46,628 nt of DNA from a virus. Made by a program: the position numbers and the translations under genes. The notes under the pieces are model-generated. The model was not told the DNA's origin. It saw only the letters and a program-made list of their open reading frames with translations, and made no database searches. Shown piece by piece: positions 1-44,821 of the stretch. How positions within the stretch are numbered: the first letter of the stretch is position 1; every line of letters starts with the position of its first letter. The stretch is taken from IMG/VR virus record IMGVR_UViG_3300012922_000002; one strand, given 5' to 3'.

Positions 1-123
1 GATCCCTGCTCCGGTTCAGGCTCGTCAGGTCACGGAGAAGACCATCACCCGCGATCGCCCGCTTGGTCCGGGTTACTTCCAGTTCGGCGAGACTGTGGCC
101 AAGGTCCAGATCTCCAAGTCATC
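1..123. repeat. Terminal direct repeat, copy 1 (identical to 46506..46628)
   Basis: Compared base by base: the first 123 nt equal the last 123 nt. This implies a circularly closed or terminally redundant genome with a unit length of 46505 bp. Confidence 0.95.
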
Positions 124-340
124 GGGTCGTCCATACGCGAAGGTTCTGGATCTGGTCAGTGGCTCGTTCGAGTACGCTCCGGGTGTTATGACCAGGCTAT
201 TCGAGTCCGACCGGCTCACGATCGAGGTAGCGGCCAAGATGGGGCGTCAGACCGGGCGGTGCATGATCTGCGCACGTGAGCTGACTAACACAGACTCAAT
301 CGAGCGTGGTATCGGTCCGATCTGCGCTGGCAAGCTTTAG
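2..340 (+). CDS. 3' part of DUF6011-like Cys-motif protein (full gene is 46348..46628 joined to 124..340, about 165 aa)
   Basis: The reading frame runs unbroken from ATG 46348 across the repeat. The C-terminal GRCMICARELTNTDSIERGIGPICAGK motif is typical of this actinophage family. Confidence 0.7.
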   Translation: MPAPVQARQVTEKTITRDRPLGPGYFQFGETVAKVQISKSSGRPYAKVLDLVSGSFEYAPGVMTRLFESDRLTIEVAAKMGRQTGRCMICARELTNTDSIERGIGPICAGKL

Positions 341-385
341 ACCGACCGTAAGGTCGGGCGTCTGTCAGCTTTGCTGACAGCCTAG
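338..385 (+). repeat. 48-nt twin-hairpin element, copy A
   Basis: TAGACCGACCGTAAGGTCGGGCGTCTGTCAGCTTTGCTGACAGCCTAG. Hairpins are CCGACC-GTAA-GGTCGG and TGTCAGC-TTT-GCTGACA. Near-identical copy at 17877..17923. Starts on the TAG stop of the upstream gene. Confidence 0.85.
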
Positions 386-440
386 TCCGTTCGGGTGACC
401 TGGGATTGACTGCCCCCGCCCCGGATGCTAAGCTTCTCGT

Positions 441-605
441 ATGAACGAGACCTTCACCGCCCGCTTGACCAGCCGAGACAACAACCACGAACAGACGTGG
501 ACCGGGCTGTCCACTGAGCTCCGAGACTTTCTCGCTGGGCAGCACCATGACCGTACCGCTTCCGGTACCACAGACACCACCCTGACTTTCGAACTGGAGA
601 ACTGA
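441..605 (+). CDS. hypothetical small protein (54 aa)
   Basis: ATG ORF below the track threshold. Its TGA overlaps the ATG of the next gene (TGATG). Weak RBS. Confidence 0.4.
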   Translation: MNETFTARLTSRDNNHEQTWTGLSTELRDFLAGQHHDRTASGTTDTTLTFELEN

Positions 606-1012
606 TGTTCCAGAACAACGATGTCGTCAAGTTCAAAACTGGCAAGGTGCTCTACGAAGTCAACCACCTCGGTGGTGAGCTTGTCCTGACCTCGCTCGAA
701 ACGAACAAAAACCGGTACAACGTAGACGAAACGAAGCTTGTCTTGGTGCGATCGGCTGAGGCTGACAACCACGTGACTGGGAACTTCGGTCCGGTTCCGG
801 AGCCTCTCACGCTTGAGGAGATGGCTGCCCAGACTGAGGCTGAGGTGTACAAGCGGGATGGCCGTCAGGGCTCGTACGGACGCCGTATCCTGATGGCCCT
901 ACAGACCAAGGCTCACGTGTTTGAGGGGCTTAGGGACGCTGTCAAGCCTCGGCATGCCAAGCGCCGTGCGAAGAGCCGTGTTGCCAAGCAAAGCCGTAAG
1001 GCGAATCGGTGA
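605..1012 (+). CDS. hypothetical protein with Lys/Arg-rich C-terminus (135 aa)
   Basis: ORF track. Coupled to its neighbours by overlapping start/stop codons. Confidence 0.75.
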   Translation: MFQNNDVVKFKTGKVLYEVNHLGGELVLTSLETNKNRYNVDETKLVLVRSAEADNHVTGNFGPVPEPLTLEEMAAQTEAEVYKRDGRQGSYGRRILMALQTKAHVFEGLRDAVKPRHAKRRAKSRVAKQSRKANR

Positions 1013-1188
1013 CTGACCCGTGCCAGTCGGTGCTGTGCTCACGAGTCGATGGCATATGCCGAGGGTCGCACTGCGCTAGGTGTGGCAAGCCTAGTAGTAT
1101 GTACGGGCACTGGACCTCGTGGTGTACCACTACTCACCAGCGGGAGGAACATCACTTCTGTTGCCCGCACGATTGTGATCGCGGATGA
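1009..1188 (+). CDS. Cys/His-rich small protein (59 aa), putative zinc-binding
   Basis: GTG start in a GTGA overlap with the upstream stop. Translated by hand: VTDPCQSVLCSRVDGICRGSHCARCGKPSSMYGHWTSWCTTTHQREEHHFCCPHDCDRG (10 Cys, 7 His). One residue below the ORF-track cutoff. Confidence 0.6.
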   Translation: MTDPCQSVLCSRVDGICRGSHCARCGKPSSMYGHWTSWCTTTHQREEHHFCCPHDCDRG

Positions 1189-1364
1189 GTGATGGTAAGA
1201 TTCCCGCTCAGGAGGTCTGCAAGTGCGGACATTCGTGGAGAGCACATCACAATACCAACGGACAATGTACAGCGGCTAGGTATACTTGTAATTGCCTAGG
1301 GTTCCGTTGGTCTGGAAATAAAACCCTGGATTTCAAAAAGTTCAAGAAAAAGTATAAAAAATGA
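1185..1364 (+). CDS. Cys/His-rich small protein (59 aa) with Lys-rich tail
   Basis: ATGA overlaps at both ends. MSDGKIPAQEVCKCGHSWRAHHNTNGQCTAARYTCNCLGFRWSGNKTLDFKKFKKKYKK. Confidence 0.6.
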   Translation: MSDGKIPAQEVCKCGHSWRAHHNTNGQCTAARYTCNCLGFRWSGNKTLDFKKFKKKYKK

Positions 1365-1642
1365 CCGAGAGCGGAGCGAGTGGACAAATGACCCGGTATG
1401 TAGCGATTAGTACGCCATGGGACGTGAGCGATCTACCGTTCGCTGACTCGCAAGTTTATCGTGAGCACGAAACCGACGTGGTTCAGACGCTGACCGAGGC
1501 TGGTAAGTGGACTCCAGCTATTCGTGCCGAGAACGAACACAACCTTCAGGACTTGATCGACTTTTATGTTGATCCCACCGAGGACCACCCTTGGAAGGTG
1601 CGAGATCTCGTCTCGGAAGAGATTGCAGGGCTGCCGGAATGA
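1361..1642 (+). CDS. hypothetical acidic protein (93 aa)
   Basis: ORF track. ATGA overlap with the upstream gene. Confidence 0.75.
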   Translation: MTESGASGQMTRYVAISTPWDVSDLPFADSQVYREHETDVVQTLTEAGKWTPAIRAENEHNLQDLIDFYVDPTEDHPWKVRDLVSEEIAGLPE

Positions 1643-1667
1643 CGACCGGGAACGGAGTGAGTAGGCG

Positions 1668-1850
1668 ATGAATTACTACCAGTACGCTCAGTCTATGCAC
1701 TTTCCGCAGATGTTCTTCCGATTCACAGACACTACAGTCGAGTCGTACGCGACTGATGATGATGCGGGTTGGATGAAATCAGAAATGTCGATTGGCAATC
1801 AATTCCTGGACTGGATCGATAAGTCCAAGCTCCCTAAGGATGCGAAATGA
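1668..1850 (+). CDS. hypothetical protein (60 aa)
   Basis: ORF track. GGAG-type RBS upstream. Confidence 0.65.
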   Translation: MNYYQYAQSMHFPQMFFRFTDTTVESYATDDDAGWMKSEMSIGNQFLDWIDKSKLPKDAK

Positions 1851-1939
1851 CCAGCGGCGACATCGTGACCACGATTTGTGTCCTGGGGTTCTTAGCTTTT
1901 ATTTGTGTTATCGTATGGGTCGAGAAAGATAACCGATGA
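1847..1939 (+). CDS. 30-aa single-pass membrane mini-protein
   Basis: ATGA overlap. MTSGDIVTTICVLGFLAFICVIVWVEKDNR (hydrophobic core, charged tail). Confidence 0.5.
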   Translation: MTSGDIVTTICVLGFLAFICVIVWVEKDNR

Positions 1940-2028
1940 ATGGTATCGCTGGCGTTTTGATTGCTCTTATCCCTTGTTTGTCTATAGCCGCTCTGCTCGC
2001 GATTGTTGTTTGGAAGGATAGGAAATAA
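1936..2028 (+). CDS. 30-aa single-pass membrane mini-protein
   Basis: ATGA overlap upstream and TAATG overlap downstream. MNGIAGVLIALIPCLSIAALLAIVVWKDRK. Confidence 0.5.
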   Translation: MNGIAGVLIALIPCLSIAALLAIVVWKDRK

Positions 2029-2474
2029 TGGGTATTATTGTTAATTCGGAGCTTCGAGGGGCTGCACTAGCCCAGGCTACGGCAGAATACATCACCGCCC
2101 ACCCCGAAGAGTGGGATCAGGGCACCTGGGGCAACAAAGACCCTGAGTGTGGCACCATCGCTTGCTTCGGGGGTACCGCCTGTTTCATCGCAGGCGAGGC
2201 CGAGTGGTATGAGGACTCGGATGGTTCGGGGTACGGCCACCTCAACTCTGCCAACGGGCGAACTGACATGGACTTCACCAGGGTTGCTCAGACCCTTCTG
2301 GGTCTGGGTGACCACGTTAGCAACGGTTTGTTCTTTGGTAACTGGGAATTCAACCGGACTAAAACCGGAAATATCGACAACACTCCAATTCGGGATAAGG
2401 TCCGGAACATGTGGGCTAAGATGGTTGAATTGTACGGTGACAAGATCACAGTTCCTGAGGAGTATCAGCGGTGA
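2028..2474 (+). CDS. hypothetical protein (148 aa)
   Basis: ORF track. The CGTIACFGGTACFIAG motif loosely resembles CCLGVAGDLLVKAG in 15703..16077 (possible distant paralogue). Confidence 0.8.
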   Translation: MGIIVNSELRGAALAQATAEYITAHPEEWDQGTWGNKDPECGTIACFGGTACFIAGEAEWYEDSDGSGYGHLNSANGRTDMDFTRVAQTLLGLGDHVSNGLFFGNWEFNRTKTGNIDNTPIRDKVRNMWAKMVELYGDKITVPEEYQR

Positions 2475-3250
2475 CGACAACTCACGTCTTGGTTGGCAGC
2501 AGCGCGGCTAAGTTTCACTTCCCGTCATGGCGTGAGCCAAAGGACAAAGATGTCTTCACCCCGATGACAGACCCGAGGGAAGATGCGTTTTGGCACCCAT
2601 CGCTGGCTCTGTACTGGCCGGAGGGTCGTTGGATCGCTACCCCGGACGAGCTGTACACTATCAAGCTCTCGCACTCGTACTGGGAGCTTGAGAACGGTTC
2701 TTGGCTGAAGCACATCACCGATGCTATGCTGCTGAAGCGTGAGGGTGCTTCGCTGATTCCGAAACTTCACGGATTGCTGTACTTGATCTGGGAAGAGAAG
2801 CACGGAGTCAAGAAAGTCGATTTAGACATGGATAAAGCATCATTCTTCGACGATGCGGTTCCGCGTAAGTATGATCACGACTCGGTGCATTATTCGGTAG
2901 CATACGGCAATGCCCCAATGTACGAAAAGGTTTTGAGGAGCGGTGCTGAGGTTGGCGTCTCTATGGCTAAGATCAAAGCGCTGCCGTTCGAGGATTGTGT
3001 CAAGTTGTTCCGAGAAGAGATTTACGCTACCGCGCTAGAACGTAAGATGATCCCCTCAGACTACCGAGGTAGCCCGGGAGCAGCGTATCAGTGGGCGCTA
3101 AGGCGTACGATCACTAGCCTCACCAAAGGCTGGTCTGCTACGTTTATAGCGGATAACTACGAACTATTCCGCAAGCCTGATATCGATTACGTCCAGCACC
3201 ATCGATCAAAGTCGGATCAGTTGATTCCGTATGAGAGGAAAAACAAATGA
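2471..3250 (+). CDS. hypothetical protein, possible minimal nucleotidyltransferase fold (259 aa)
   Basis: GTGA overlap start. The N-terminal VGSSAAKF...KDKDVF fits the G[SG]-x(10-16)-DxD pattern of NTase-fold enzymes. Inference only. Confidence 0.75.
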   Translation: MTTTHVLVGSSAAKFHFPSWREPKDKDVFTPMTDPREDAFWHPSLALYWPEGRWIATPDELYTIKLSHSYWELENGSWLKHITDAMLLKREGASLIPKLHGLLYLIWEEKHGVKKVDLDMDKASFFDDAVPRKYDHDSVHYSVAYGNAPMYEKVLRSGAEVGVSMAKIKALPFEDCVKLFREEIYATALERKMIPSDYRGSPGAAYQWALRRTITSLTKGWSATFIADNYELFRKPDIDYVQHHRSKSDQLIPYERKNK

Positions 3251-3624
3251 CATACACCGGCGCCCAGATCCAGCAGGCCTTGGAGAACCATACCTGGGAG
3301 TTTGAGACCTGTGCTTATGACTTGAACTATCGCGTGATCCCGGGCAAGACTGAGACACACACTGCTGAGTTCGAGTGGTACGAGGCTGAGGATAGCGTGG
3401 GGACTACGTACAACGTGCTCGGCGGAGTTGAGATTGTCGACTCTGATCCCGGGGGCGAAGGCCACGGCGAGTATATCTACGTCGTTGTTCGGACTGTGGA
3501 TACTAACCAGTACTTCCGTATCGACGGATATTACGCGTCCTACGGGGACGGCTCTCAGTATGATGGGGACATGTACGAGGTTCGTCCGTTTGAGCGGACT
3601 ATCACAGATTGGGCAAAGGTCTGA
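3247..3624 (+). CDS. hypothetical protein (125 aa), paralogue of the next gene
   Basis: ATGA overlap. The C-terminal YFRIDGYYASYGDG..YEVRP aligns with FFKISGVFNSYGDY..VQVEP of 3624..3989. Confidence 0.8.
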   Translation: MTYTGAQIQQALENHTWEFETCAYDLNYRVIPGKTETHTAEFEWYEAEDSVGTTYNVLGGVEIVDSDPGGEGHGEYIYVVVRTVDTNQYFRIDGYYASYGDGSQYDGDMYEVRPFERTITDWAKV

Positions 3625-3989
3625 TGTTTGTTGAACTAGACGCAGCGATTGCGGAGGCGATTCTCCGAAAGATCCGACGTGAGCAGGATGCTTATAACGA
3701 GGATTGGGCTTGGTGGCGGAACGACGCTATTCCCAACTCTGCGTACGAGGTGTCGGCTAAGATCACGGTGTCTGTGATCGATCGGGGCACTAAGTATTCC
3801 GAGAATTCGTATGGAGACCAGGAGCCGGTGAGCACACTTGTGTTCCAGTTCACCGAGACCGGTACACTAGACTCTGTGTTTTTCAAGATCTCGGGTGTTT
3901 TCAATTCGTACGGTGACTACGACTCGTACGGCCAGCTTGTTCAGGTCGAGCCTACTACGCGTACCGTAGTTGTGTACGACTTCATCTAG
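3624..3989 (+). CDS. hypothetical protein (121 aa), paralogue of the previous gene
   Basis: ATG in a TGATG overlap (the ORF track begins at TTG 3609). Confidence 0.75.
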   Translation: MFVELDAAIAEAILRKIRREQDAYNEDWAWWRNDAIPNSAYEVSAKITVSVIDRGTKYSENSYGDQEPVSTLVFQFTETGTLDSVFFKISGVFNSYGDYDSYGQLVQVEPTTRTVVVYDFI

Positions 3990-4004
3990 GTCAGCATCAT
4001 CCGG

Positions 4005-4028
4005 CCCCGGACGTTACGGCGTTCGGGG
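4005..4028 (+). terminator. stem-loop downstream of 3624..3989 (weak terminator or RNA-stability hairpin)
   Basis: CCCCGGACGT-TACG-GCGTTCGGGG gives a 10-bp stem with two G-U pairs. Only a short T-containing tail follows. Confidence 0.35.
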
Positions 4029-4055
4029 TACGGGTCTATTCACAGGAGAAAGATC

Positions 4056-4220
4056 ATGGAAATTCGAGTCTCCCCGGATGGAGATCAGATCGCGTACAAA
4101 TGGCTTACTGCGTGGTGGGCTGTCAAGCCCAAGCGTGTAGCTCCGTTCCGAGTCACCGAAGAACAAATCAAGAATTGGAAGTATGTTATGGTCATCGAGA
4201 ACGACCGGCTGAACCGATGA
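4056..4220 (+). CDS. hypothetical small protein (54 aa)
   Basis: AGGAGA RBS 6 nt upstream of the ATG. ATGA overlap with the MazG-like gene. Confidence 0.6.
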   Translation: MEIRVSPDGDQIAYKWLTAWWAVKPKRVAPFRVTEEQIKNWKYVMVIENDRLNR

Positions 4221-4597
4221 CCGAGTCTGAAGCGACCCGAATGGTAATCGAGTTTCACCGAGTGTTTAATATCGTTATTAATGGAGACGACACGCGAGAA
4301 CTTCGATCTTTGCGCGCGGATCTGGCTTACGAAGAATCTGAAGAAGTCTACGAAGCACTAGTTAACAATTCCCGATTGGAACATGTCGCCAAAGAACTCG
4401 CGGACGTGGTGTACGTCGCATTCGGGGCGGCGGTGTCGCTGGGTATTGACTTGGACGAAGCACTGCGTAGGGTGCACGCTTCGAATATGTCTAAGCGTAA
4501 TCCGGATGGAACCGTGTCATACCGGGAGGATGGAAAAGTGCTCAAACCAGATACGTACCGCGTACCGGATCTTACGGGGGTTGTGTACAGTGATTAA
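4217..4597 (+). CDS. mazG: MazG-like nucleoside triphosphate pyrophosphohydrolase (126 aa)
   Basis: The EFHRVF...EESEEVYEAL...ELADVVYVAFG pattern is typical of the all-alpha MazG family. Start placed at the ATGA overlap, not at the track start 4100. Confidence 0.8.
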   Translation: MTESEATRMVIEFHRVFNIVINGDDTRELRSLRADLAYEESEEVYEALVNNSRLEHVAKELADVVYVAFGAAVSLGIDLDEALRRVHASNMSKRNPDGTVSYREDGKVLKPDTYRVPDLTGVVYSD

Positions 4598-4781
4598 CTG
4601 GGTGTGTAGCGATTATTTCGAACTACTAAACGAGTTTGGGAGTGGGCTAGCAGTAGCTCGGTTGAGTCCCGGGACTGACGACGCGGTTATCTACGTGGGG
4701 GATTCGCAGGTTCGGATTACCACTGAGCACCTTGGACAGTTCGCTGAGGCTTTGACTAAGTTGTACGGGGAGCGGGAGTAA
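4590..4781 (+). CDS. hypothetical protein (63 aa)
   Basis: GTG start overlapping the MazG stop by 8 nt. C-terminal part of track ORF 4383..4781. Confidence 0.55.
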   Translation: MINWVCSDYFELLNEFGSGLAVARLSPGTDDAVIYVGDSQVRITTEHLGQFAEALTKLYGERE

Positions 4782-4966
4782 TGGCGGGACCACAAGGATG
4801 CGAGTCTGTTTCTCGGTGGGATCAATGCGGCGTTATCGAAACTAAAACTTGCGCACGGCCCACCGGTCATCCTGGGGAACATATGTCGAAGCTTGTCAGC
4901 GAGTGGGATACACGTCGTTGGTTCGACGACGAAGCGGCGTACAGTGTCGGGGGTTCTGATGACTAA
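4781..4966 (+). CDS. hypothetical protein (61 aa)
   Basis: TAATG overlap. GGGAG RBS. Confidence 0.6.
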   Translation: MAGPQGCESVSRWDQCGVIETKTCARPTGHPGEHMSKLVSEWDTRRWFDDEAAYSVGGSDD

Positions 4967-5381
4967 GCTACCGCACGGCAGGTTGTGGGAGCTAGAGTGC
5001 GCTAGCAAGGGCCTAGACCCTCTCACAGCAACCGCTGACGATGTTCTGGGTGCTTACACCAGGTTCGCTATGTGGGACGCGAACGGGCGTCTGATCCTCT
5101 CAGCGACCAACCGTGTCGGTGAGGACTCTTGCTGGTCTGCTGACACTGGGCTTACCGGCGAGTACTACAACATCGAAGACTTCATGGACGGAGTCCAGGA
5201 CGTTGCTGGGCTGACTTATGATGAGCGTATGCTGGTAGAGTCGATCGTAGATGGCGGACCCATCCCGGGTACGGGACAGTATACGATCACATACGCTAGG
5301 CGATTCAGGCGATCGCCAACAACGATTAGGAAGATATGGCAGCGTGCCAAGAAAAAGCTTTTGGATAGGTGGGCAGCATGA
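4959..5381 (+). CDS. putative DNA-binding protein with C-terminal sigma-70 region 4/LuxR-like HTH (140 aa)
   Basis: ATG with a GGGGG RBS. The C-terminal RRFRRSPTTIRKIWQRAKKKLLDRW resembles region-4-type HTHs. Confidence 0.65.
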   Translation: MTKLPHGRLWELECASKGLDPLTATADDVLGAYTRFAMWDANGRLILSATNRVGEDSCWSADTGLTGEYYNIEDFMDGVQDVAGLTYDERMLVESIVDGGPIPGTGQYTITYARRFRRSPTTIRKIWQRAKKKLLDRWAA

Positions 5382-5791
5382 CGATCGGAGTGTGCCGGAA
5401 CGGGCACAAGCGAACAGCTAAGAACACTCGTATCTCGGCAGCGGGCGAGGTCAGATGCATTATCTGCCAGACCGCTAACAATCAACGCAGTCGAGCTAAA
5501 AAGTCTGTTCTCAGCAAACAGTACTCAGTTCCAGACGGATGGGAGGACGAGTTTGGACCAGCCCCAGAACGAGCGGGTAACAGCACGTGGTATGATGAAG
5601 TGATTGTTCACCGTGCACTGAACGGATACTCAACCGGCCGAAGGCCGTTTCCGCTAGAAGCTCAAGCTATCCTAGCAGGGATGAACAGCTCTCACGACGG
5701 AGAGTCTGTCAGCGAACTGTGTGGGCTACAACGTACAGCTGTAGCTCGCTGGATTCAGAGATGGGGCAAGCCTAGTGAGCGAGCATCGTAG
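5378..5791 (+). CDS. putative DNA-binding protein: N-terminal Cys/His zinc ribbon plus C-terminal HTH (137 aa)
   Basis: ATGA overlap. CRNGHKRT...RCIICQ at the N-terminus and SELCGLQRTAVARWIQRWG at the C-terminus. Confidence 0.65.
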   Translation: MTIGVCRNGHKRTAKNTRISAAGEVRCIICQTANNQRSRAKKSVLSKQYSVPDGWEDEFGPAPERAGNSTWYDEVIVHRALNGYSTGRRPFPLEAQAILAGMNSSHDGESVSELCGLQRTAVARWIQRWGKPSERAS

Positions 5792-6548
5792 CTTTAGCCA
5801 GCTATCGAGTTACAAATGTCCCTACCGCTACTATTTAGAACGTGTAGAAAAGGTCTGGCAGAAGCCAGCCGCTTGGTTGGGAATGGGAACTGCTGTCCAC
5901 TACGCGTGCGAGCAATGGGAGTTGTCCGAGCGCAAAGCTCCGGATGTTGTTATCAAAGCGTGGTTCCAAGAATCCTACTGGGAAGCTACGAACAAGTACT
6001 TAGAAGAAACACCGAACACAGCGCATTGGGAAGCTAGCGGACCGTACAAAGGTCCGGAGGATATTGCCCGTAGGTTTGAAGTTGGACAAGAACATGTTAT
6101 CCGGTACGCCGAATACTATCGGAAACACCGCACGGAACTTCCTTGGGTCACTCCAGATGGAACGCCTGCTATTGAACTCCCGTTTGACTTTGAGCTTGGT
6201 GGCGTACCTATCAGAGGGTTTATTGACGCTGTTATCAATGTCGACGGGGAACTTATAGTCCGGGATACCAAATCGGGTCGTCAACCCGGCGATGACCAAC
6301 AGCTCAAGATTTACGCCTTGGCTATCGAAGCTATGGGTGGGCCCGAGATCGCTCTCGGCGATTATTTTATGACTCGTACCGGCAAGCCTACGTTCCCGTA
6401 TGATTTACTCCAAGTAACAAAAGAAGAGATGACCAATCGATTTGTTCAACTGGATCTGTCGATCAAAGCGGGAGAATTCCCGCCTAACCCAGGCGATGAA
6501 TGTGCTAGGTGTTCTGTGAAACTATCCTGCGAATATCGAGTGGGGTGA
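5775..6548 (+). CDS. Cas4-family / RecB-like PD-(D/E)XK exonuclease (257 aa)
   Basis: N-terminal Cys (YKCPYRYY), IDAV...VRDTKSG...QQLKIYALA nuclease core, and a C-terminal CARCSVKLSC cluster. This is the four-Cys Cas4 pattern. Confidence 0.85.
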   Translation: MSEHRSFSQLSSYKCPYRYYLERVEKVWQKPAAWLGMGTAVHYACEQWELSERKAPDVVIKAWFQESYWEATNKYLEETPNTAHWEASGPYKGPEDIARRFEVGQEHVIRYAEYYRKHRTELPWVTPDGTPAIELPFDFELGGVPIRGFIDAVINVDGELIVRDTKSGRQPGDDQQLKIYALAIEAMGGPEIALGDYFMTRTGKPTFPYDLLQVTKEEMTNRFVQLDLSIKAGEFPPNPGDECARCSVKLSCEYRVG

Positions 6549-6552
6549 ATAC

Positions 6553-8331
6553 ATGTCTCAAAACACAGCGGGAGCCGCTGCTATTATGGCTGAGCTAGGC
6601 TATTGGGTTTACCCGGTAACCGTCCGACTCGACGAGAAGGGTAAGAAGCGCCCGGAGTTTCCTGGGAGTTGGAAGAATTCTGTATGTTTCCCGATTGACA
6701 GCGACCCGGATGGCCCGGACTTCGACGAGTACGATGGCTTTATCGTAGACTGTGAGATGTCTAAAATCGTAGTCATCGATCTGGATTGGTCTGATTCCAA
6801 GTCTGGTGTAGCGAGTCTTAAAGCAGCAGGCATCGAGCTACCGCACACACCTATGCGGGTACGCACACAGTCAGGTGGTTTTCACGGCTACTACCGCCAG
6901 CCGGAGAAGCCAGTGGGCACGTATCAAGGTGTCCCTGTACAAGGCGTGGACATCCGTGGAGTCGGTGGGTGTGTGTTCGGACCTGAGACCGTGGTTTACA
7001 GCCCCGAGGGCGAACCTGTAGGGTTGTACGTAGCGGTTGAGGATGCGATTCCTGTCTCGGAACTCCCGGTATTGTCAGAAGCGTTTGTAGCGGCTATCGA
7101 CTCGGTGACTGTAGAAGTCGAGCGTGGCCCTTCGACGTTGGTACCGTATGTAGGCACATTGTCCACGTACCAAGACGAACTCTTGACCAAGTGGTACAAC
7201 GAAGATCTAGACGCTATTGTTAACGCGGGTGACGGCGAACGTCACCGGGTGCTTTTGTCCAAGGTCGGGAAGATCTTGGACCGAGGTATGAAGCTGGATA
7301 CTCAAAGCCTAGAAGGGATCATCCACGATATTCAGCAAGCGTATGAGGACTCCGGCGGTGACGAGTGGGAAGACAAGAAGCAGATTGTGGAATGGTCGCT
7401 GCTCAAGGTAGCAGCCGACCCGATGGGCGTCCCGCAAGAGCGTGTGCATGCTTCTGAGCTTGAGCGTGAAGCCAAGATCCGAGAAGAACAGACCAAGATC
7501 GAGATCCGTCGAGAAGCTAAGCGCAGGGCTGATGTAGGCTCCGAGCCGGTTGATACTGGCCGTGTACTGTCTTTCGATGAGCCCGAAGGAAGTCTTTATC
7601 ACCAGTCATGGGTTGAGGGGGTTCTCCCAAAAGGGGAGACGGTTATCCTTTTCGGCCAGAGGTACCACGGTAAGTCTGTATTCGGTCTAGATCTGGGATT
7701 GTCTGTAGCAGGGGGTGTCGATTGGCATGGACGAACAACCGAACAAGGTAACGTACTTTACCTCGCGGGTGAAGGTACCATCGGCCTACCGGCTCGTAGG
7801 CGAGCGTGGGTACAGCATCATGCAACAACCAACCCGGTTCAGCTGCAAATGCGAGATCGTGTTGTTCAACTCGGAAATCCCGGATCGGTAAAAGCGTTCA
7901 AAGAACTTGTGCTAGAGCACGAAATCGATTTGCTGATTATCGACACGCTACGGCGTGCTGCTCGTGGCCTGGATATAGCAGATCCGGGTGTTGCTCAGGA
8001 TATGGTGGAGATCGTTGATGACATCCGACGTACCCGACACGGTTGCACCGCGCTAGTACTCCACCACCCCACGAAGACCAACCCGACAGAGCCTGCTGGT
8101 GGTGGCACGCTTCAGGATGCTGTCTCAGTGATTCATTTCTTGGAAAAGGATGAATACAATGAGATGACTCTTACAACTACCAAAATGAAAGACGGTCCGG
8201 ATGGTGAGGTGGGCAGGTTTTATCTCACCGAGGTAGCAGGGTCTATTGCTTTGACCAAGGAAGCACCCCAGGCTGAATATTCCGGGCCTGAAGGTGACCC
8301 GTTCCAACGACGAAGGCACGAGGACGAATAG
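6553..8331 (+). CDS. bifunctional primase-polymerase (Prim-Pol) fused to RepA/RecA-like ATPase (592 aa)
   Basis: VVIDLDWSD (DxD) and SGGFHGYY Prim-Pol motifs. Walker A is GQRYHGKS and Walker B is LLIIDTL. Confidence 0.85.
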   Translation: MSQNTAGAAAIMAELGYWVYPVTVRLDEKGKKRPEFPGSWKNSVCFPIDSDPDGPDFDEYDGFIVDCEMSKIVVIDLDWSDSKSGVASLKAAGIELPHTPMRVRTQSGGFHGYYRQPEKPVGTYQGVPVQGVDIRGVGGCVFGPETVVYSPEGEPVGLYVAVEDAIPVSELPVLSEAFVAAIDSVTVEVERGPSTLVPYVGTLSTYQDELLTKWYNEDLDAIVNAGDGERHRVLLSKVGKILDRGMKLDTQSLEGIIHDIQQAYEDSGGDEWEDKKQIVEWSLLKVAADPMGVPQERVHASELEREAKIREEQTKIEIRREAKRRADVGSEPVDTGRVLSFDEPEGSLYHQSWVEGVLPKGETVILFGQRYHGKSVFGLDLGLSVAGGVDWHGRTTEQGNVLYLAGEGTIGLPARRRAWVQHHATTNPVQLQMRDRVVQLGNPGSVKAFKELVLEHEIDLLIIDTLRRAARGLDIADPGVAQDMVEIVDDIRRTRHGCTALVLHHPTKTNPTEPAGGGTLQDAVSVIHFLEKDEYNEMTLTTTKMKDGPDGEVGRFYLTEVAGSIALTKEAPQAEYSGPEGDPFQRRRHEDE

Positions 8332-8576
8332 TGGCTAACATCCTGCACACCACGGTTAAACTAGGCGAGAAGAGCTGGCATCATATCGCTAATGTTCTTA
8401 TCGAAGGCGAGTACCTCTCGGTAGAGCACATCGGTAAGAAGAACATCACCGCGCGTGCTTACCGTCGAGCTACCTCGTTTGACGACGGAGCTTATATCCT
8501 GGATCTAGTCGGGCTAGAGCTTCTCGACAAGCATGGCGAGAGGGTGGCTGTTTCTGCCAAGGCGGTAGGGTTCTGA
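8331..8576 (+). CDS. hypothetical protein (81 aa)
   Basis: GTG start overlapping the upstream stop (TAGTG). Confidence 0.7.
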   Translation: MANILHTTVKLGEKSWHHIANVLIEGEYLSVEHIGKKNITARAYRRATSFDDGAYILDLVGLELLDKHGERVAVSAKAVGF

Positions 8577-9004
8577 GCCGCCGTAAGAAGGCTAAGCCGG
8601 TCAAGTCGGTAGGAGGCTGCGTAGACTGCGAGCCCGGGTCTAAGAGGTTGTCCTACCGGCCTGGCCCACGCTGTGCTACACACCACCGCGCTAAGAAGAA
8701 TACTCAACGCACCGCAGCCCACGATACTCACGTGCTCAAGACGTACGGCATCACAGGCGATGAGTACTGGGCGATTTACGAAGCGCAGAACCGGGTGTGC
8801 TATATTTGTCAGAGAGCTACCGGCGCACGTAAGCGGTTGTCTGTAGACCACGATCACGCTACTGGTGAGGTCAGAGGGTTGCTCTGCACCACAGACAATC
8901 GGTATCTAGGTCACATCAGAGACAGCATCGAGACAGCGAAGCGAGTGGAATCGTATCTACGAAATCCCCCTGCTAGACGCATACTAGGAGGTAAAAATGG
9001 CTAG
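8573..9004 (+). CDS. recombination endonuclease VII (start uncertain; proposed CTG 8573)
   Basis: CYICQ...LSVDHDHATGEVRGLLC endo VII core. An N-terminal zinc ribbon (CVDC...RCATHH) is encoded upstream of the first canonical start (TTG 8648). The frame is open from 8483, and CTG (in a CTGA overlap) is the only start-like codon. Confidence 0.7.
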   Translation: MSRRKKAKPVKSVGGCVDCEPGSKRLSYRPGPRCATHHRAKKNTQRTAAHDTHVLKTYGITGDEYWAIYEAQNRVCYICQRATGARKRLSVDHDHATGEVRGLLCTTDNRYLGHIRDSIETAKRVESYLRNPPARRILGGKNG

Positions 9005-9350
9005 CCGTGTCTTGATCACAGGCTCTCGTGAGTGGGTGGACGAAGACAAAATGGTGCGCGCATTATCGCTGCTCCCGGAGCACATAGTGGAACTTGTCCA
9101 TGGGGGAGCACGAGGCGCGGATCTTATGGCGGAAAAACTGTGGACTTCGTGGCGAGGGTACCGGGCGCTACAGATCGTAGCAGAATGGGACACGCTTGGT
9201 AAAGCGGCTGGAGTGATTCGGAATCAGCATATGGTCGATCTCGGGGATTATGCAGTGTGTCTTGCTTTTCCCCTCGGGGAATCTCGTGGTACCCGGGATT
9301 GTATGGCTCGTGCCCGCAAAGCGGGTATTCTAGTTTTAGAGGTTACGTGA
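8997..9350 (+). CDS. SLOG-superfamily / DUF2493-like protein (117 aa)
   Basis: ITGSREW...VHGGARGADL...AGVIRNQHMV motif set. Strong AGGAGG RBS. Confidence 0.8.
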   Translation: MASRVLITGSREWVDEDKMVRALSLLPEHIVELVHGGARGADLMAEKLWTSWRGYRALQIVAEWDTLGKAAGVIRNQHMVDLGDYAVCLAFPLGESRGTRDCMARARKAGILVLEVT

Positions 9351-9375
9351 TTACCCTGGATACGCGGAGGAAGTG

Positions 9376-9573
9376 ATGGCGATCATCATCCCAGTTTGGA
9401 TCAAGTGGGGGAGTAAACAAGGACCACTCCGGTCATTTGGTACATTCACAGTCCCGGATGATTACGAGGGCGATGCCGCTCTAATCTTTGCCCGGCACCT
9501 TCGTAAGTGTGCTGAGCTAATGGAAACCGAAGTAGAAGTCAACTACTTCAAAAAGTCTTTGGAGGGTTTGTGA
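9376..9573 (+). CDS. hypothetical protein (65 aa)
   Basis: ATG with a GGAGGA RBS (track start is GTG 9373). Confidence 0.65.
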   Translation: MAIIIPVWIKWGSKQGPLRSFGTFTVPDDYEGDAALIFARHLRKCAELMETEVEVNYFKKSLEGL

Positions 9574-9746
9574 GCTACGAAATTCGTGAGTGGAGTGAAT
9601 ACGACCGTTCAGGGTTCGAAGTTGTCGACGCTGCCGGAGACCCGGTCATCCTGATCTCGGATGACTTCGAAACCCGTGAAGACGCTGAGTGGTTCCTGGA
9701 GTATCTCTGGCGAACCGGAGTACAGCCGGGAGAAGGCGAACTGTGA
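9570..9746 (+). CDS. hypothetical acidic small protein (58 aa)
   Basis: GTGA overlaps at both ends. VSYEIREWSEYDRSGFEVVDAAGDPVILISDDFETREDAEWFLEYLWRTGVQPGEGEL. Confidence 0.55.
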   Translation: MSYEIREWSEYDRSGFEVVDAAGDPVILISDDFETREDAEWFLEYLWRTGVQPGEGEL

Positions 9747-9922
9747 GCTATCAAGACGATCTTCTCCGAATCGATAAATTGTGCGAGTTTAGTGCGTCCG
9801 GAGACGGAGTCTCCGTAGTTCATGCGTTAATAAACGTGCTCACGGTAGCTTACTCAACCGGCAAAGAAGACATTATCGCAGCCGCGCATCTTGCGTTGTA
9901 TCCTCCTAAGGAGGAATCTTGA
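9743..9922 (+). CDS. hypothetical small protein (59 aa)
   Basis: GTGA overlap start. C-terminal part of track ORF 9689..9922. Confidence 0.55.
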   Translation: MSYQDDLLRIDKLCEFSASGDGVSVVHALINVLTVAYSTGKEDIIAAAHLALYPPKEES

Positions 9923-10662
9923 GGGTTCTTCTAATCGACATCGAGACTAAGCCGAACCTTGGTTATATCTGGTCATTGTGGAATCAGAATGTTAGCTTGA
10001 GCCAGCTAGTCGAAGCCAAGGATACTATCTGCTTCGGGTATGAATGGCTCGAAGGCAACGGCAAAGGATTCCATTCAGTGTGGGGCGAAGATGGTAAGCA
10101 GGGTATGGTTCAAGCTGCCTGGGATCTGCTGAACGAAGCGGACGCTGTTATCCATTACAACGGCTCCAGGTTCGATATGCCCCATCTTAACGCTTTGTTC
10201 TTCGAAGCGAAGATGGGTCCGCCGAGTCCGTATAAGAACATTGATTTGTTGTCTGTGGTTCGTAAGAAGTTTGGTCAGGGTATCCCTAGTAAGAAGCTGG
10301 CCTACGTCACTCAGTGGGCTGGTCTTACGACTAAGACGGATACCGGCGGTTTCGGATTGTGGATCGGGGTGATGAAAGACGATCCTAAAGCTCAGAAGAA
10401 AATGGAGCGGTATTGCCGGAATGATGTTAAGATCATGCGCCCGCTGTACTATCGTCTTCTGCCTTGGATCGACAACCACCCCAACCGGAATCTATACGAT
10501 GTCAAAACCGATGGTTGCCCGAAATGTGAGGGTGGCCCAGAGGACTTGGTAAAAGAAGGGTTCCGATACACTCAGACCGGGGCGTATCAGCAGTATTCTT
10601 GCCGCAGGTGCAAGGGTTGGTGCTCGGGCGGTAAGCGAAGTTACGGGAGCGACGTTCGATGA
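9919..10662 (+). CDS. RNase H-like (DnaQ-type) 3'-5' exonuclease with C-terminal zinc ribbon (247 aa)
   Basis: LIDIET ExoI-type motif. CPKC...CRRC near the C-terminus. TTG start in a TTGA overlap with AAGGAGG 5 nt upstream. Confidence 0.8.
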   Translation: MRVLLIDIETKPNLGYIWSLWNQNVSLSQLVEAKDTICFGYEWLEGNGKGFHSVWGEDGKQGMVQAAWDLLNEADAVIHYNGSRFDMPHLNALFFEAKMGPPSPYKNIDLLSVVRKKFGQGIPSKKLAYVTQWAGLTTKTDTGGFGLWIGVMKDDPKAQKKMERYCRNDVKIMRPLYYRLLPWIDNHPNRNLYDVKTDGCPKCEGGPEDLVKEGFRYTQTGAYQQYSCRRCKGWCSGGKRSYGSDVR

Positions 10663-10844
10663 CGGATGAAGAAATCCGCGATGCTATCCTGGATTATTTC
10701 CGGGTTGTTTTTCTGAACTTTGGAGGGGACTATCTAGACGAAACTCTAGAGGGGACGGAAGACGAAGACGATTACGATCGAGCGTGCGAGCTTATGACAG
10801 GAGCCACCCTGAATATCGAATGGTCAGGAGAAGTCAGTGACTGA
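10659..10844 (+). CDS. hypothetical acidic protein (61 aa)
   Basis: ATGA overlap. ORF track. Confidence 0.65.
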   Translation: MTDEEIRDAILDYFRVVFLNFGGDYLDETLEGTEDEDDYDRACELMTGATLNIEWSGEVSD

Positions 10845-11061
10845 GAAGCGTGTGTATCGTCTAGTGCTAGAGCCGGAAGACATCGATACCCGGATTGAAT
10901 ACGTAATCGAAGATGTAGAAAATGAAGAGGTTATACCCCTGGACGCTGAAGACGCATTCGATTGCGTGCTTAGTAATAACGAAGGCTACTACCTCAAATC
11001 GTTCGAGGTTATTAGCGAGTCGGAGATTCCGAAGAACGCCCGACCTTACGAGGGGGGGTAA
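10837..11061 (+). CDS. hypothetical acidic protein (74 aa)
   Basis: GTG start with an 8-nt overlap. ORF track. Confidence 0.6.
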   Translation: MTEKRVYRLVLEPEDIDTRIEYVIEDVENEEVIPLDAEDAFDCVLSNNEGYYLKSFEVISESEIPKNARPYEGG

Positions 11062-11063
11062 CA

Positions 11064-11663
11064 ATGATTGAGTTCGAAGGTTGGCCCAAGACTCCTCGGT
11101 TGAATAAAACTGTTGTTTATACCGAAAAGCTAGATGGTACGAATGCAGCAGTTGTCATCGAGGAGATCGATGACCCATCTATGTACGAATACGACGATAA
11201 GTACTATGATATCGGTGCTCAGTCCCGCAACCGTCTTATCACTCCGTCTGATGACAACCACGGTTTTGCTCGCTGGGTTTCTTCGAATGCTCAGGGGCTT
11301 ATCGCTACGCTTGGTCCCGGTCGCCACTTCGGTGAATGGTACGGTTCTGGTATTGGTCGTGGCTACGGGCTGACCAAGGGTGACAAGCGGTTCGCTTTGT
11401 TCAACACCGCTCGATGGTGGACTATTGAGAACCTGAACCGGGTTAGCGAGGTCCCCGGGCTAGAGTGCGTCACGGTTCTAGGTATCCAGCCTTTCTCTGT
11501 CGAGACGGCTAAGTTTTATGTCGAGGAACTTCGTCAGTTTGGGTCTGAGCATGTACCCGGCTTTATGCGTCCTGAAGGCGTATGCGTATTCCACACTGCT
11601 AGCCGCCAGGTGTACAAAACGTTCCTAGAGAATGACGAAGTCCCCAAGGGGCGTGACGGATGA
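11064..11663 (+). CDS. RNA ligase (covalent nucleotidyltransferase family, 199 aa)
   Basis: Motif I EKLDGTN, followed by GEWYG and PEGVCVFH. The size matches small stand-alone RNA ligases. Confidence 0.8.
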   Translation: MIEFEGWPKTPRLNKTVVYTEKLDGTNAAVVIEEIDDPSMYEYDDKYYDIGAQSRNRLITPSDDNHGFARWVSSNAQGLIATLGPGRHFGEWYGSGIGRGYGLTKGDKRFALFNTARWWTIENLNRVSEVPGLECVTVLGIQPFSVETAKFYVEELRQFGSEHVPGFMRPEGVCVFHTASRQVYKTFLENDEVPKGRDG

Positions 11664-12232
11664 CTGACTTCATGACTAGGGAGGTGGAACACAAGCCACG
11701 CCCGGGTGGAACCCCCAATGGAACCGTGGCTATTTCAGAATCTGTGATAGGTATCGTGGTAGAATCCCGACTGGGATCGTTTGTTGTCCAAGTAGACAAA
11801 GATGACTATCCCCCGCTGTCACCCTACCGGTGGTACGTTTATCAGAACGGGTATACCGAATACGCGAAGGCGGATTGCGTGGCAGACGGCCACAACAACT
11901 GTCGAGTGTATGCACACCGGTTAATTACCGGGTTTTCTGAAGTGGACCACGAAAACCATGACGGGCTGGATAATCGACGAGACAATCTTCGTCTTGCCAG
12001 CCGTTCGCAAAATATCGTGAACTGTCGTGTGCGCAGCCGCAATACGTCGGGGTATACAGGTGTTAGCTGGGATAAGAGACATAGAAAGTGGGAAGCTTAT
12101 TACAGCTCGAATAACAAAAAAGTGTCGCTAGGGCTGTTTTCAGAGATTCTAGACGCCGCTGAAGCGCGGTTTAAAGCGGTGACGAAAGAGTACGGGGAGT
12201 TTGCCCCTTCGGACGGAGTGCGAGATGACTGA
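11660..12232 (+). CDS. HNH homing endonuclease with AP2 DNA-binding domain (190 aa)
   Basis: DHENHDGLDNRRDNLRLASRSQN (HNH) and YTGVSWDKRHRKWEAYY (AP2). ATGA overlap. Confidence 0.85.
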   Translation: MTDFMTREVEHKPRPGGTPNGTVAISESVIGIVVESRLGSFVVQVDKDDYPPLSPYRWYVYQNGYTEYAKADCVADGHNNCRVYAHRLITGFSEVDHENHDGLDNRRDNLRLASRSQNIVNCRVRSRNTSGYTGVSWDKRHRKWEAYYSSNNKKVSLGLFSEILDAAEARFKAVTKEYGEFAPSDGVRDD

Positions 12233-12749
12233 CATGATGACCGAGGAGGTACGATTCGTGTGGTGGCTAGGTCCTAGTATCCGTTCCGCCGCTGAGGATG
12301 CGGTACTCAACTACCCGGGTGTTACTGACGCTGACACGCTCACAGCAGAGCTAACCCTGAGTATCCTGGACAAGAACCTAGCCGAGGAGATCGAAGCTCT
12401 CCCAGACCATCTCAGGCGCCGTAGGCTGGCTTCTACAGCGAAGAACCTGATCCTCACCGAGATTGCTGACTTCGAATACCGGACCGGGAACGTGATGTAT
12501 TCGGTCAGCCAAGTCAAGTATTTGTTGGAATCGGGGCTGTTGACTGGCGGGCGTACGCGTATCGCTCCCGAGGGTTCAGACCTGGATCTAGGCTGTCAGT
12601 ACCTTCAGCGTGTGCTCCCAGCCTACGCTCGTAGTATTGCTTCTAAATACGTATCCGGGGAGATACCGGGTGACCCCGGACTGTTAGCACGCGCTATCCA
12701 TGCGTTGACTGACTGCGTCAACAATCTCCATAAGAATAAGGTGGCTTAA
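12225..12749 (+). CDS. hypothetical protein (174 aa)
   Basis: ORF track frame. ATG 12225 overlaps the HNH stop by 8 nt (alternative start at 12201). Confidence 0.7.
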   Translation: MTDMMTEEVRFVWWLGPSIRSAAEDAVLNYPGVTDADTLTAELTLSILDKNLAEEIEALPDHLRRRRLASTAKNLILTEIADFEYRTGNVMYSVSQVKYLLESGLLTGGRTRIAPEGSDLDLGCQYLQRVLPAYARSIASKYVSGEIPGDPGLLARAIHALTDCVNNLHKNKVA

Positions 12750-13259
12750 ATGTCTACTGACCCATTTGCCAAGCGTACCCCGAAGAAAGAGGAGCCCGTG
12801 GCAGAAACCCCCGGAGTTACCGTTTCCCCTGTTGGTGAGATCAGCCTGAGTGGTAAGACTGGCCCTGGCTACGAAGCCGGGCTTATCAATCTGAGGGCTC
12901 CGACTGTCCGGGATGCTGCTGAGACTCTGGGTATCGATCCTGAGGGCAAGCTTCCTAACGTCTTGCTGGCAGAAGTTATCGCTAAGTGGAACGAAGTCCA
13001 TGTATTCGCTCAGGATCATTACCGCGAGACCAAGGGCGAGCCTGCTCCGTCTGCTAAGGCTGCTCCCGCTCAGCGTGGTAAGCCTGCCGGAGCTACTCAG
13101 GCTCCGGACTGGATGGGTCTCCCCCCATCGTGTGACCATGGTAAGAAGCGATACGTGACCAAGGTTGGTGCTAAGGGTCAGTGGCATGCTTGGGGATGCC
13201 CTGGTCCGAAGAACGACCAGTGCGAAGATGGTCTCGACTTTCAGAACGAACCGAAGTAG
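12750..13259 (+). CDS. hypothetical protein with C-terminal Cys/His cluster (169 aa)
   Basis: AAGGTGG RBS. C-terminal CDHGKKRY...HAWGCPGPKNDQC. Confidence 0.75.
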   Translation: MSTDPFAKRTPKKEEPVAETPGVTVSPVGEISLSGKTGPGYEAGLINLRAPTVRDAAETLGIDPEGKLPNVLLAEVIAKWNEVHVFAQDHYRETKGEPAPSAKAAPAQRGKPAGATQAPDWMGLPPSCDHGKKRYVTKVGAKGQWHAWGCPGPKNDQCEDGLDFQNEPK

Positions 13260-13265
13260 TCTAGT

Positions 13266-13300: not shown

Positions 13301-13313
13301 TGAGAGGAAAGTT

Positions 13314-13621: not shown

Positions 13622-13624
13622 ATA

Positions 13625-13801: not shown

Positions 13802-13804
13802 GCT

Positions 13805-17611: not shown

Positions 17612-17703
17612 AGGCTGGTGAAGTTCTAGCTACGCTTTTTATGCTCCTCGGTTTGACCTGTATCCTGGTAGGAGTAATCTACGAATTGGTGGCGAGACTG
17701 TGA
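17608..17703 (+). CDS. 31-aa membrane mini-protein
   Basis: GTGA overlap. VKAGEVLATLFMLLGLTCILVGVIYELVARL. Confidence 0.5.
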   Translation: MKAGEVLATLFMLLGLTCILVGVIYELVARL

Positions 17704-17879
17704 TTAAGTTTCTTGAATACGCTGGTATGGGCTTATGGTTTGGATTCAACTTGTTTCATTTCGGAGGTACTGTGTACCTAGCTGCCAAGACTCGTAAGAG
17801 TTTGTGGACCCTGGTTCAGTTGGCGGTCGTTTCTGTGTCTGTTACGGGGTGGGTTCTGGTAGCTCCGAGCGTCTTCTAG
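17700..17879 (+). CDS. 59-aa two-TM membrane protein
   Basis: GTGA overlap. Two hydrophobic segments. Its TAG stop is the first triplet of twin-hairpin copy B. Confidence 0.55.
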   Translation: MIKFLEYAGMGLWFGFNLFHFGGTVYLAAKTRKSLWTLVQLAVVSVSVTGWVLVAPSVF

Positions 17880-17923
17880 ACCGACCGTAGGTCGGGCGTC
17901 TGTCAGCTTTGCTGACAGCCTAG
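17877..17923 (+). repeat. twin-hairpin element, copy B
   Basis: Identical to 338..385 except for one A missing from loop 1. Confidence 0.85.
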
Positions 17924-17948: not shown

Positions 17949-17984
17949 GTACCCCCTGGCTTCGGCCAGGGGTACTGTTGTTTT
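17949..17984 (+). terminator. strong intrinsic terminator
   Basis: GTACCCCCTGGC-TTCG-GCCAGGGGTAC forms 11 bp with one bulged C, followed by TGTTGTTTT. Confidence 0.75.
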
Positions 17985-44701: not shown

Positions 44702-44821
44702 GGTACCAGGGGAGCCGAACGTCACGACCGCCGCAAGGCGGGGTGCGCGAGCAAGCGGAAGCTTGCTCCGATCCCTCGGTGGAGAGGATCACCGATTCGT
44801 ATCCAGCTCTACCCTGGTACC
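44702..44821. ncRNA. closed multi-helix structured element (candidate ncRNA or cis-regulatory RNA; strand unresolved)
   Basis: A 14-bp closing helix (GGTACCAGGGGAGC / GCTC-TA-CCCTGGTACC) encloses three hairpins at 44728..44741, 44749..44768 and 44770..44790. Confidence 0.4.

Follow-up and report, generated by a model that had tools for sequence, protein, structure and literature searches.

Why does one phage genome carry the same small structured sequence twice, each time on the stop codon of a gene? The question is raised by the 46,628 nucleotides of IMG/VR virus record IMGVR_UViG_3300012922_000002 (the window, meaning the whole stretch of DNA that was analysed), in which a repeat that folds into two adjacent hairpins stands on either side of the replication genes. 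We call the repeat a cassette and its two copies E1a and E1b (collectively E1). A preliminary description of the window listed an RNA processing or stability site, a nut/put-like antitermination signal, a protein operator, and a recombination substrate as possible roles. We consider it probable that the repeat is instead one subfamily of twin-hairpin miniature palindromic insertion elements, 45–48 nt in length and similar to repetitive extragenic palindromic (REP) elements, that reside in uncultured actinobacterial siphophages. Four insertions of this size share one architecture. They occupy four unrelated non-coding sites, in both orientations, and each is missing from close relatives. The varied sites and orientations, the empty sites, and the presence of two near-identical copies in one genome therefore point to a duplicative or mobile element, not to a conserved cis-regulatory signal.

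The repeat and its diverged relatives

The repeat reads TAGACCGACCGT(A)AGGTCGGGCGTCTGTCAGCTTTGCTGACAGCCTAG on the + strand and measures 48 nt in E1a and 47 nt in E1b (Table 1). A sequence match confirms the positions of both copies and the one-A difference in loop 1 that had been described, and the flanks of the two copies are indeed unrelated. The shared 34-nt core has two matches in the genome and none in 100 dinucleotide-preserving shuffles. Besides a 123-nt terminal overlap of the contig, the pair is the sole intragenomic repeat detected by BLAST (96% over 51 nt, E 1e-15). The earlier statement that this is the only long non-coding repeat thus holds for sequence repeats, but a structurally homologous third cassette, E4, lies further along the window. 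A search for sequence repeats cannot detect E4.

Either strand of the cassette folds into a 6-bp hairpin, then an 8-bp hairpin. The RNA folding energies of the two copies are -23.8 and -21.7 kcal/mol (z -4.3 and -3.7), and the DNA folding energy is -15.7 kcal/mol (z -5.7), or about -15.5 kcal/mol with z -5 to -6 overall, bearing out the twin-hairpin fold. The GNRA tetraloop ascribed to hairpin 1 is present in E1a (GTAA) but not in E1b, where the loop is GTA. As had been noted for both copies, the opening TAG is the stop codon of the upstream ORF (open reading frame), namely a 165-aa DUF6011 gene for E1a (TAG at 338-340) and a 59-aa ORF for E1b (TAG at 17877-17879). The copies also bracket the replication module in the geometric sense, around a promoter-to-terminator unit that holds the replication genes. 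No U tract adjoins either hairpin, as described, but a strong canonical terminator begins 26 nt past E1b.

Related phage contigs were traced through homologues of the primase/helicase. The primase identity to the window is 90% for L006 and 86% for L007, L008, and L009, and L010, L011, and L013 are more distant relatives. L020, L021, and L022 were traced through homologues of two ORFs adjoining the cassettes. The comparison covers parts of the genomes of these relatives only.

A covariance model (R1) for which E1a and E1b were the sole input matches one locus in L006 (Table 1) with a score of 27.4 bits and an E value of 3.6e-7; in ~830 kb of phage DNA taken without selection, R1 scores reach 15 bits at most. 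The L006 copy retains the GTAA of loop 1, the start of the spacer (GGGC), and the apex of hairpin 2 (AGC-TTT(T)-GCT). The comparison with L007 shows it as 45 inserted nt within the loop of a 10-bp GC hairpin. It adjoins the -35 box of a promoter homologous to that of the window at 406-434 and is antisense to all neighbouring genes. In L007 (3252-3300), a 10-bp GC hairpin follows the upstream gene directly and has the -35 box of the second promoter, TGGACA, in its loop, which could be a combined terminator/promoter arrangement. In L006 (3655-3745), the cassette and the -35 box lie together in the loop of that hairpin.

E4 is a clean 47-nt insertion that is present in neither L006 nor L007, as seen in a three-way alignment that followed a whole-arm alignment with L007. 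MAFFT did not align E4 to the family, and its place in the family comes from a hand-made structural alignment. In that alignment, hairpin A of E4 corresponds to hairpin 1 of E1 minus the central A:T pair, with the loop changed from GTAA to GCAA. Hairpin B keeps the loop-closing triplet AGC..GCT and differs from E1 by four compensatory pair changes. E4 sits in a conserved non-coding block between convergent genes. The block of ~310 nt (44700-45010) is bounded by a 279-aa ORF at 43820-44659 (+) and a helix-turn-helix (HTH) gene at 45010-45312 (-). It is ~90% conserved in L006/L007, above the neighbouring genes, is strongly structured (z -2.8), has no Rfam match, and contains two small window insertions besides E4 (~44816-44830 and ~44841-44861). 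The block could be a non-coding RNA, an origin, or a regulatory block.

The preliminary description had proposed to look for compensatory substitutions in both stems, and these are found once the diverged members are included. Between E1 and the L006 copy, 6 of the 14 pairs have changed on both sides (three per stem), and 100% of cells pair. Among 500 shuffles, only 2 show this level of covariation, and sliding the partners makes the signal collapse. Across the four cassettes, 7 of the 14 pair positions vary, one of them through deletion of a whole pair, and all cells are Watson–Crick (55/55, with no G–U). The loops and the loop-closing pairs are conserved across the three variants. The compensated stem changes, together with the conserved loops, indicate that the feature being maintained is intrastrand pairing.

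The 152 kb of the phage group contain 9 perfect twin hairpins, compared with ~1 in shuffles. Further perfect twin hairpins that do not have the conserved loops of the family are found at 21199-21231 and 40068-40107 of the window, 7171-7212 and 9600-9644 of L010, and 2056-2098 of L013.

Several candidates were rejected. The R1 hit at 18742-18796 of L007 (15 bits) has mismatched pairs and lies within a gene. The model hits in L013 were not accepted as family members. Derivation of the 5' arm of hairpin 1 from the target (CCAG in L007) was rejected once the -35 boxes were aligned. The minus strand of the window carries a 15-nt exact match to the middle of the cassette, CGTAAGGTCGGGCGT (11036-11050), inside conserved coding sequence; 14 nt of it are kept in L006-L009, and ~0.004-0.01 such matches are expected by chance. 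The match has no extended similarity to the cassette and is therefore probably due to chance; it was rejected as a family member.

Empty sites in related phages

In alignments, the site of E1a (site 1) is empty in L006, L007/L008, and L022, and the site of E1b (site 2) is empty in L007, L020, and L021. E1a and E1b are insertions of about 45-50 nt relative to every relative covering their sites; for E1a, the length compared with L006, L007, and L022 is about 42-45 nt.

At site 1, the DUF6011 gene of all lineages ends in ...GKL/GRL-stop, with the conserved downstream sequence ...CGGGTGACC...TTGAC(T/C). L006 and L007 read stop-GT-TAGTCTG..., L022 reads CTT-TAG-GCCGACC-GGGTGACC, and the window reads TAG-[ACCGACC...CAGCC]-TAG-TCCGTTC.

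At site 2, the 60-aa gene of L007 and L021 ends in ...GTGTTCACCTGA, with the terminator directly after it, and the empty junction reads ...TTCACCTGA-TCGGCGG. L020 reads ...GTCTTC-TAGACC-GCTCACCCGTTTGGCGG, with GCTCACC after TAGACC, and the window reads ...GTCTTC-TAGACC-[GACCGTAGG...CAGCC-TAGACC-ATGACT]-GCTCACCC... L020 shares the window's allele of the site 2 gene (95% amino-acid identity). The 59-aa protein of the window ends in ...APSVF*, and its 60-aa homologue in L007 ends in ...APSVFT*. The empty sites of L020 and L022 belong to the SRR26786819 phage. The empty site 2 of L020 (917-935) shares TAGACCG with the start of the cassette (7/7), which may reflect target similarity or microhomology, or the footprint of a loss.

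The relatives carry homologous promoters (TTGACT-18-TACGCT in L006 and TGGACA-17-TAGACT in L007), and the terminator at 17949-17984 is kept in L007, L020, and L021, all of which are without the cassette at that site. The promoter and the terminator are therefore the older, conserved features. The empty orthologous positions, found in all relatives covering them, argue against a conserved signal of the replication module. Conservation in relatives, on which the preliminary description had staked its proposal, is not found for the cassette. In addition, the empty sites, the loop of E1b, the inverted L006 copy, and the unrelated sites speak against an antitermination signal of the nut/put type, against a site for specific RNA processing, and against an operator; they speak neither for nor against a recombination substrate. 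We infer that the cassette is not a required signal of the replication module.

Origin of the cassettes and competing explanations

As insertion elements, the cassettes would be gained, and possibly lost, at non-coding spots within one phage group, and the selected feature would be the formation of intrastrand hairpins. In the most likely context, the folded single-stranded DNA would be recognised or copied by an enzyme acting in trans, as for REP elements and their RAYT (REP-associated tyrosine transposase; TnpA-REP) proteins or for the ends of the insertion sequences (IS) IS200/IS605. Folding as single-stranded DNA is favoured over a sequence-specific RNA function by the strictly Watson–Crick stems, the one inverted copy, and the one insertion into a hairpin loop. 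Alternatively, the route would be template switching at short homologies while the phage replicates. The near-identity of E1a and E1b (47/48 positions) probably comes from recent copying within this genome. Effects on expression would be by-products: the TAG of the cassette would serve as a stop codon and place two RNA hairpins just 3' of the ORF, where they may slow 3'-5' decay or damp read-through. A ribosome would open hairpin 1, which starts 2 nt past the stop codon, and hairpin 2 would stay as the 3' structure.

REP elements are the closest analogue. REP elements have stems of 6-9 bp and short loops, fall into subfamilies with complementary stem changes, form closely spaced heterodimers, and lie downstream of ORFs and between convergent genes; their GTAG termini often provide the TAG stop codon of the flanking ORF (PMC3733652). 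The palindromes of the cassettes are likewise small, with stems of 6 + 8 bp (E1 and the L006 copy) or 5 + 8 bp (E4) and loops of 3-4 nt, and their two unlike hairpins stand 3-7 nt apart as in a heterodimer. The cassettes follow ORFs or separate convergent genes, the terminal TAG of E1 is the stop codon of the flanking ORF, and their subfamilies differ by complementary stem changes. In particular, the L006 copy begins with GTAG right before the 8-bp hairpin, and E1 has CGTC right before hairpin 2. However, the GTAG/CGTC tag of REP elements is unpaired, terminal, and conserved in >90% of the members of most families (PMC3733652), whereas the tag of the cassettes is inconsistent: E1 has TTAG or CTAG, with CTAG on the other strand, and E4 has none. 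The cassettes also reside in a phage and not in a bacterial chromosome, with 3 copies in a 46.5-kb genome compared with tens to hundreds. REP elements are thought to be mobilised by RAYT tyrosine transposases, and no RAYT gene was found in the phage. With an inconsistent tag, a tiny copy number, no RAYT, and no bacterial family, membership of the cassettes among REP elements is not established. The REP survey mentions neither Actinobacteria nor phages (PMC3733652).

Searches outside the phage group gave chance matches at most. Exact and degenerate element patterns have no match in IMG/VR, or one chance match inside coding sequence, and exact-stem patterns have one chance match in JGI metagenomes, inside coding sequence as well. 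Blastn searches with E1, the L006 copy, and E4 against INPHARED phages and PLSDB plasmids gave hits at chance level only (E >= 0.3). In Rfam 15, the sole match above the gathering threshold in the window is a tRNA, and none of the matches over either copy is credible up to an E value of 10. A primase search of IMG/VR with a single protein returned no close relative; with an alignment as query, it returned one relative of the group and 79 distant loci, and those 770 kb contain no match to the covariance model.

By definition, MITEs (miniature inverted-repeat transposable elements) have terminal inverted repeats of 10-15 bp or more, duplicate 2-10 bp at the target site, and span 50-800 bp (PMC11602168). 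Like MITEs, which have also been reported in viral genomes, the cassettes are short, non-coding, non-autonomous, present or absent among close relatives, and mostly intergenic, and a possible short direct repeat (TAG or TAGACC) flanks E1. Unlike MITEs, they measure 45-48 nt and have no consistent target duplication.

The ends of IS200/IS605 elements and their transposase-less derivatives, the palindrome-associated transposable elements (PATEs), are defined by hairpins instead of inverted repeats. By analogy, a single-strand mechanism would explain selection for intrastrand pairing, the strand-symmetric Watson–Crick stems, and the insertion of the L006 copy into a hairpin loop. However, the cassettes are far smaller, are accompanied by no TnpA/TnpB gene, and share no common tetra- or pentanucleotide on their left flanks, which end in ...AAGCTT, ...GTCTTC, ...AGTCAA, and ...AACGTC. 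Mycobacteriophage mobile elements (MPMEs) have defined inverted repeats and an ORF. The cassettes have neither and are ~1/10 the size, but the two kinds of element are alike in being small insertions that differ between nearly identical actinophages. MPME1 and MPME2 measure 439-440 bp and have 6 extra bp of unexplained origin at one junction (PMC3029335), comparable to the six extra bases ATGACT at site 2.

Several points weigh against insertion elements. Four copies in two genomes, a very small sample, are the whole basis of the family and its covariation. The model that found the L006 copy takes structure into account and so prefers candidates that pair, and the alignment of E4 was made by hand. 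Two exact-stem patterns have only 3 chance matches, in coding sequences of high-GC genomes, among 185,579 GTDB representative genomes. With no copy in representative bacterial genomes, a host REP family is unsupported, though the host may be unsampled. No transposase, integrase, or Y1/HUH family is present among the scanned window proteins or in precomputed Pfam tables. The cassette has no terminal inverted repeat: when CTAGACCGACCG is set against CTAGGCTGTCAG, the 3' end read as reverse complement, at best 8 of 12 positions agree, and the self-complementary CTAG accounts for 4 of these. The flanks differ between the copies, TAG...TAG for E1a and TAGACC...TAGACC plus the six unexplained bases for E1b. 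Nothing comparable is seen at the L006 copy or at E4, so that there is no consistent target-site duplication. The empty site 1 of L022 (1399-1420), TAG-GCCGACCG, is identical to the 5' end of the cassette, TAG-ACCGACCG, at 10 of 11 bases, which could mean loss instead of gain, or a local origin of the hairpin. Finally, E1a, E1b, and E4 are all in sense orientation, which would also fit a function at the RNA level.

We would class the cassette with miniature palindromic, REP-like insertion elements, residing here in a phage. A bolder proposal, which we find doubtful, is that the cassettes form a new class of 45-48-nt hairpin-defined mobile elements spreading within or between phage genomes. Such elements would be copied as folded single-stranded DNA by a phage enzyme (the Prim-Pol/helicase, the PD-(D/E)XK nuclease, or HNH endonucleases) or by a HUH enzyme of the host; they would preferentially enter intergenic DNA rich in hairpins and would supply their own stop codon. 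The class would be ~10x smaller than the 'ultra-small' MPMEs and below the usual size range of MITEs.

If the cassettes are REP-like insertion elements, phages can carry and spread hairpin cassettes smaller than anything that current MITE or IS finders target, and annotation would miss them. The cassettes would then be a cause of presence/absence polymorphism and of assembly breaks such as the Logan contigs that end at the repeat. As portable stop codons with 3' hairpins, they would be able to reshape gene ends and transcript stability. As direct repeats, they would be able to promote deletion or exchange of large modules; the 47-bp repeats flank a 17.5-kb replication module, and a PD-(D/E)XK nuclease is encoded. 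The case also warns that relatives should be checked before intragenomic repeats are called regulatory.

Among the other explanations, we regard as unlikely, though the best of them, a functional RNA element at the 3' ends of transcription units that protects mRNA from 3'-5' exonucleases, or acts as a weak U-less terminator or insulator, and has been recruited repeatedly. E1a and E1b each close a block of co-directional genes at its 3' end, in sense orientation and right behind a stop codon, E4 is flanked by convergent genes, and the RNA of the cassette folds stably (-22 to -24 kcal/mol, z -3.7 to -4.3). The covariation fits RNA pairing equally well, and such roles are credited to REP elements (PMC3733652). 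However, the L006 copy runs antisense to every gene around it, E1b has lost the GNRA loop, and none of the 55 pair cells is G–U. Relatives with the same layout of promoter and terminator manage without the cassette.

In particular, a role as terminator is unconvincing. Although the cassettes resemble intrinsic terminators in having GC-rich hairpins after stop codons, hairpin 2 is followed by CCTAGTCCG or CCTAGACCA and not by the U-tract that mycobacterial RNA polymerase requires for intrinsic termination (PMC3993855). A real, canonical terminator already follows site 2 and is kept in relatives without the cassette; a terminator scan lists 17953-17972 and does not list hairpin 2 of the cassette. 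In contrast to lambdoid nut and HK022 put sites, which keep their position in early transcripts across related phages and have boxA/boxB (here judged by eye) or the two large put stem-loops, the cassette is not found in the orthologous transcripts of any relative.

Less probable still is a by-product of replication or recombination, in which template switching or illegitimate recombination at mosaic junctions left the cassettes as neutral scars. Short identities are present at the junctions: site 1 has TAG at both ends, where the outgroups read stop-GT-TAG, and L020 shares TAGACCG. Six extra, unexplained bases are present at site 2, which lies at a mosaic boundary, the identity to L021 being ~69% in the upstream gene and ~82% in the downstream region. 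The failure to find a transposase in the scanned window proteins and the Pfam tables fits this explanation as well. However, chance scars would not hold both hairpins through 7 compensated changes with loops and spacing conserved, and four independent insertions that agree in architecture and size speak for a defined unit.

We attach very little probability to a duplex DNA operator, whose palindromes would be bound by a dimeric phage regulator such as the Cro/CI-type HTH protein encoded at 45010-45312. The genome does encode this protein, both hairpins are perfect DNA palindromes (6-4-6 and 8-3-8), and E1a and the L006 copy are both found a short distance upstream of promoters that are homologous. 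However, E1b and E4 are away from promoters, and relatives with the same HTH protein and the same promoters lack the sites. In addition, a dimer that reads half-sites would be expected to keep the half-sites conserved, but here it is the palindrome centres that are conserved, and the half-sites change as mirror images. Therefore, a duplex operator is unconvincing.

A false repeat made by misassembly or chimera formation is hardly conceivable: although the window was assembled from a metagenome and its ends overlap by 123 nt, the k=141 ENA assembly reads through both copies, each with its own distinct flanks, and the Logan (k=31) assemblies of two other runs (SRR6266850 and SRR6267142) reproduce both junctions in contigs that break exactly at, and end inside, the repeat. 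One Logan contig, SRR6266850_1300181 (L003/L019; 17,563 bp), is exactly window 356-17918. A break in the k=31 graph fits this contig, and a 17.5-kb form excised or deleted by recombination between the direct repeats would look alike.

Neighbouring features and genome context

Table 1 Positions of the cassettes and of neighbouring features (window coordinates unless L006 is named).
Feature	Positions	Strand	Description
Cassette E1a (copy 1)	338..385	+	TAGA, hairpin 1 CCGACC-GTAA-GGTCGG, spacer GCGT, hairpin 2 CTGTCAGC-TTT-GCTGACAG, tail CCTAG
Cassette E1b (copy 2)	17877..17923	+	Same as E1a but loop 1 = GTA
Cassette E4	44724..44770	+	ACGA CCGCC-GCAA-GGCGG GGTGCGC GAGCAAGC-GGAA-GCTTGCTC CG
L006 copy	3673-3719 of L006	-	AATA-CCAGTC-GTAA-GACTGG-GCA-CCGGTAGC-TTTT-GCTACCGG-CTAC (own strand)
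DUF6011 gene, 3' part	1..340	+	165 aa; start at 46348, spans the circular junction (translation)
Sigma-70-like promoter	406..434	+	TTGACT-17 nt-TAAGCT; consensus match
59-aa hydrophobic ORF	17700..17879	+	Stop codon = first TAG of E1b
Canonical intrinsic terminator	17949..17984	+	GGTACCCCCTGGC-TTCG-GCCAGGGGTACT then GTTGTTTTA; fold z -4.0
Early/replication arm	~43820 across the junction to ~19540	+	

The DUF6011 assignment of the gene upstream of E1a comes from the gene table of L004, in which the identical protein P0029 is assigned to PF19474. The promoter downstream of E1a, which the preliminary description does not mention, starts 21 nt past the cassette. It ends 6 nt before the ATG at 441, so that the 54-aa gene starting there is, judged from this spacing, probably leaderless. 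In L006 and L007, a 66/67-aa gene that the window does not have follows the DUF6011 gene (L006 3360-3780, L007 2950-3330). Window 385-441 resembles a fusion at the two TTGACT -35 boxes, joining the sequence upstream of promoter 1 to the spacer and -10 box of promoter 2. On the other side of the replication module, a conserved 39-aa ORF (17985-18104) begins with an ATG (17985) that overlaps the T-tract of the terminator; gene callers do not call this ORF, and no product of exactly identical sequence is on record.

The genome in the window is complete and was assembled as a circle, with positions 1-123 identical to 46506-46628, giving a unit of 46,505 bp with 53% G+C. The layout is of the actinobacterial siphovirus type. 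The + strand arm encodes a PD-(D/E)XK nuclease, a Prim-Pol/helicase, an RNase H-like protein, an RNA ligase, an HNH-AP2 endonuclease, and a family A DNA polymerase (PolA). The structural and lysis arm on the - strand encodes TerL, a MuF-like protein, a tape-measure protein, and an Rv2525c-like lysin. A tRNA-Trp is the single tRNA of the genome. The nearest isolated phages are distant, PolA having only 44% amino-acid identity to Mycobacterium abscessus prophages, and megablast of 8 kb of the window against INPHARED (50,697 phage records) gave no match.

Two further features of the early arm and its end were observed. The HNH-AP2 endonuclease ORF (190 aa, 11660-12232) is not present between the RNA ligase and gp53-like genes of L006/L007 and looks like a free-standing homing endonuclease insertion. 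Between the converging arms, a GC hairpin of 11-13 bp with T-runs on both strands (19551-19580) is likely a bidirectional terminator.

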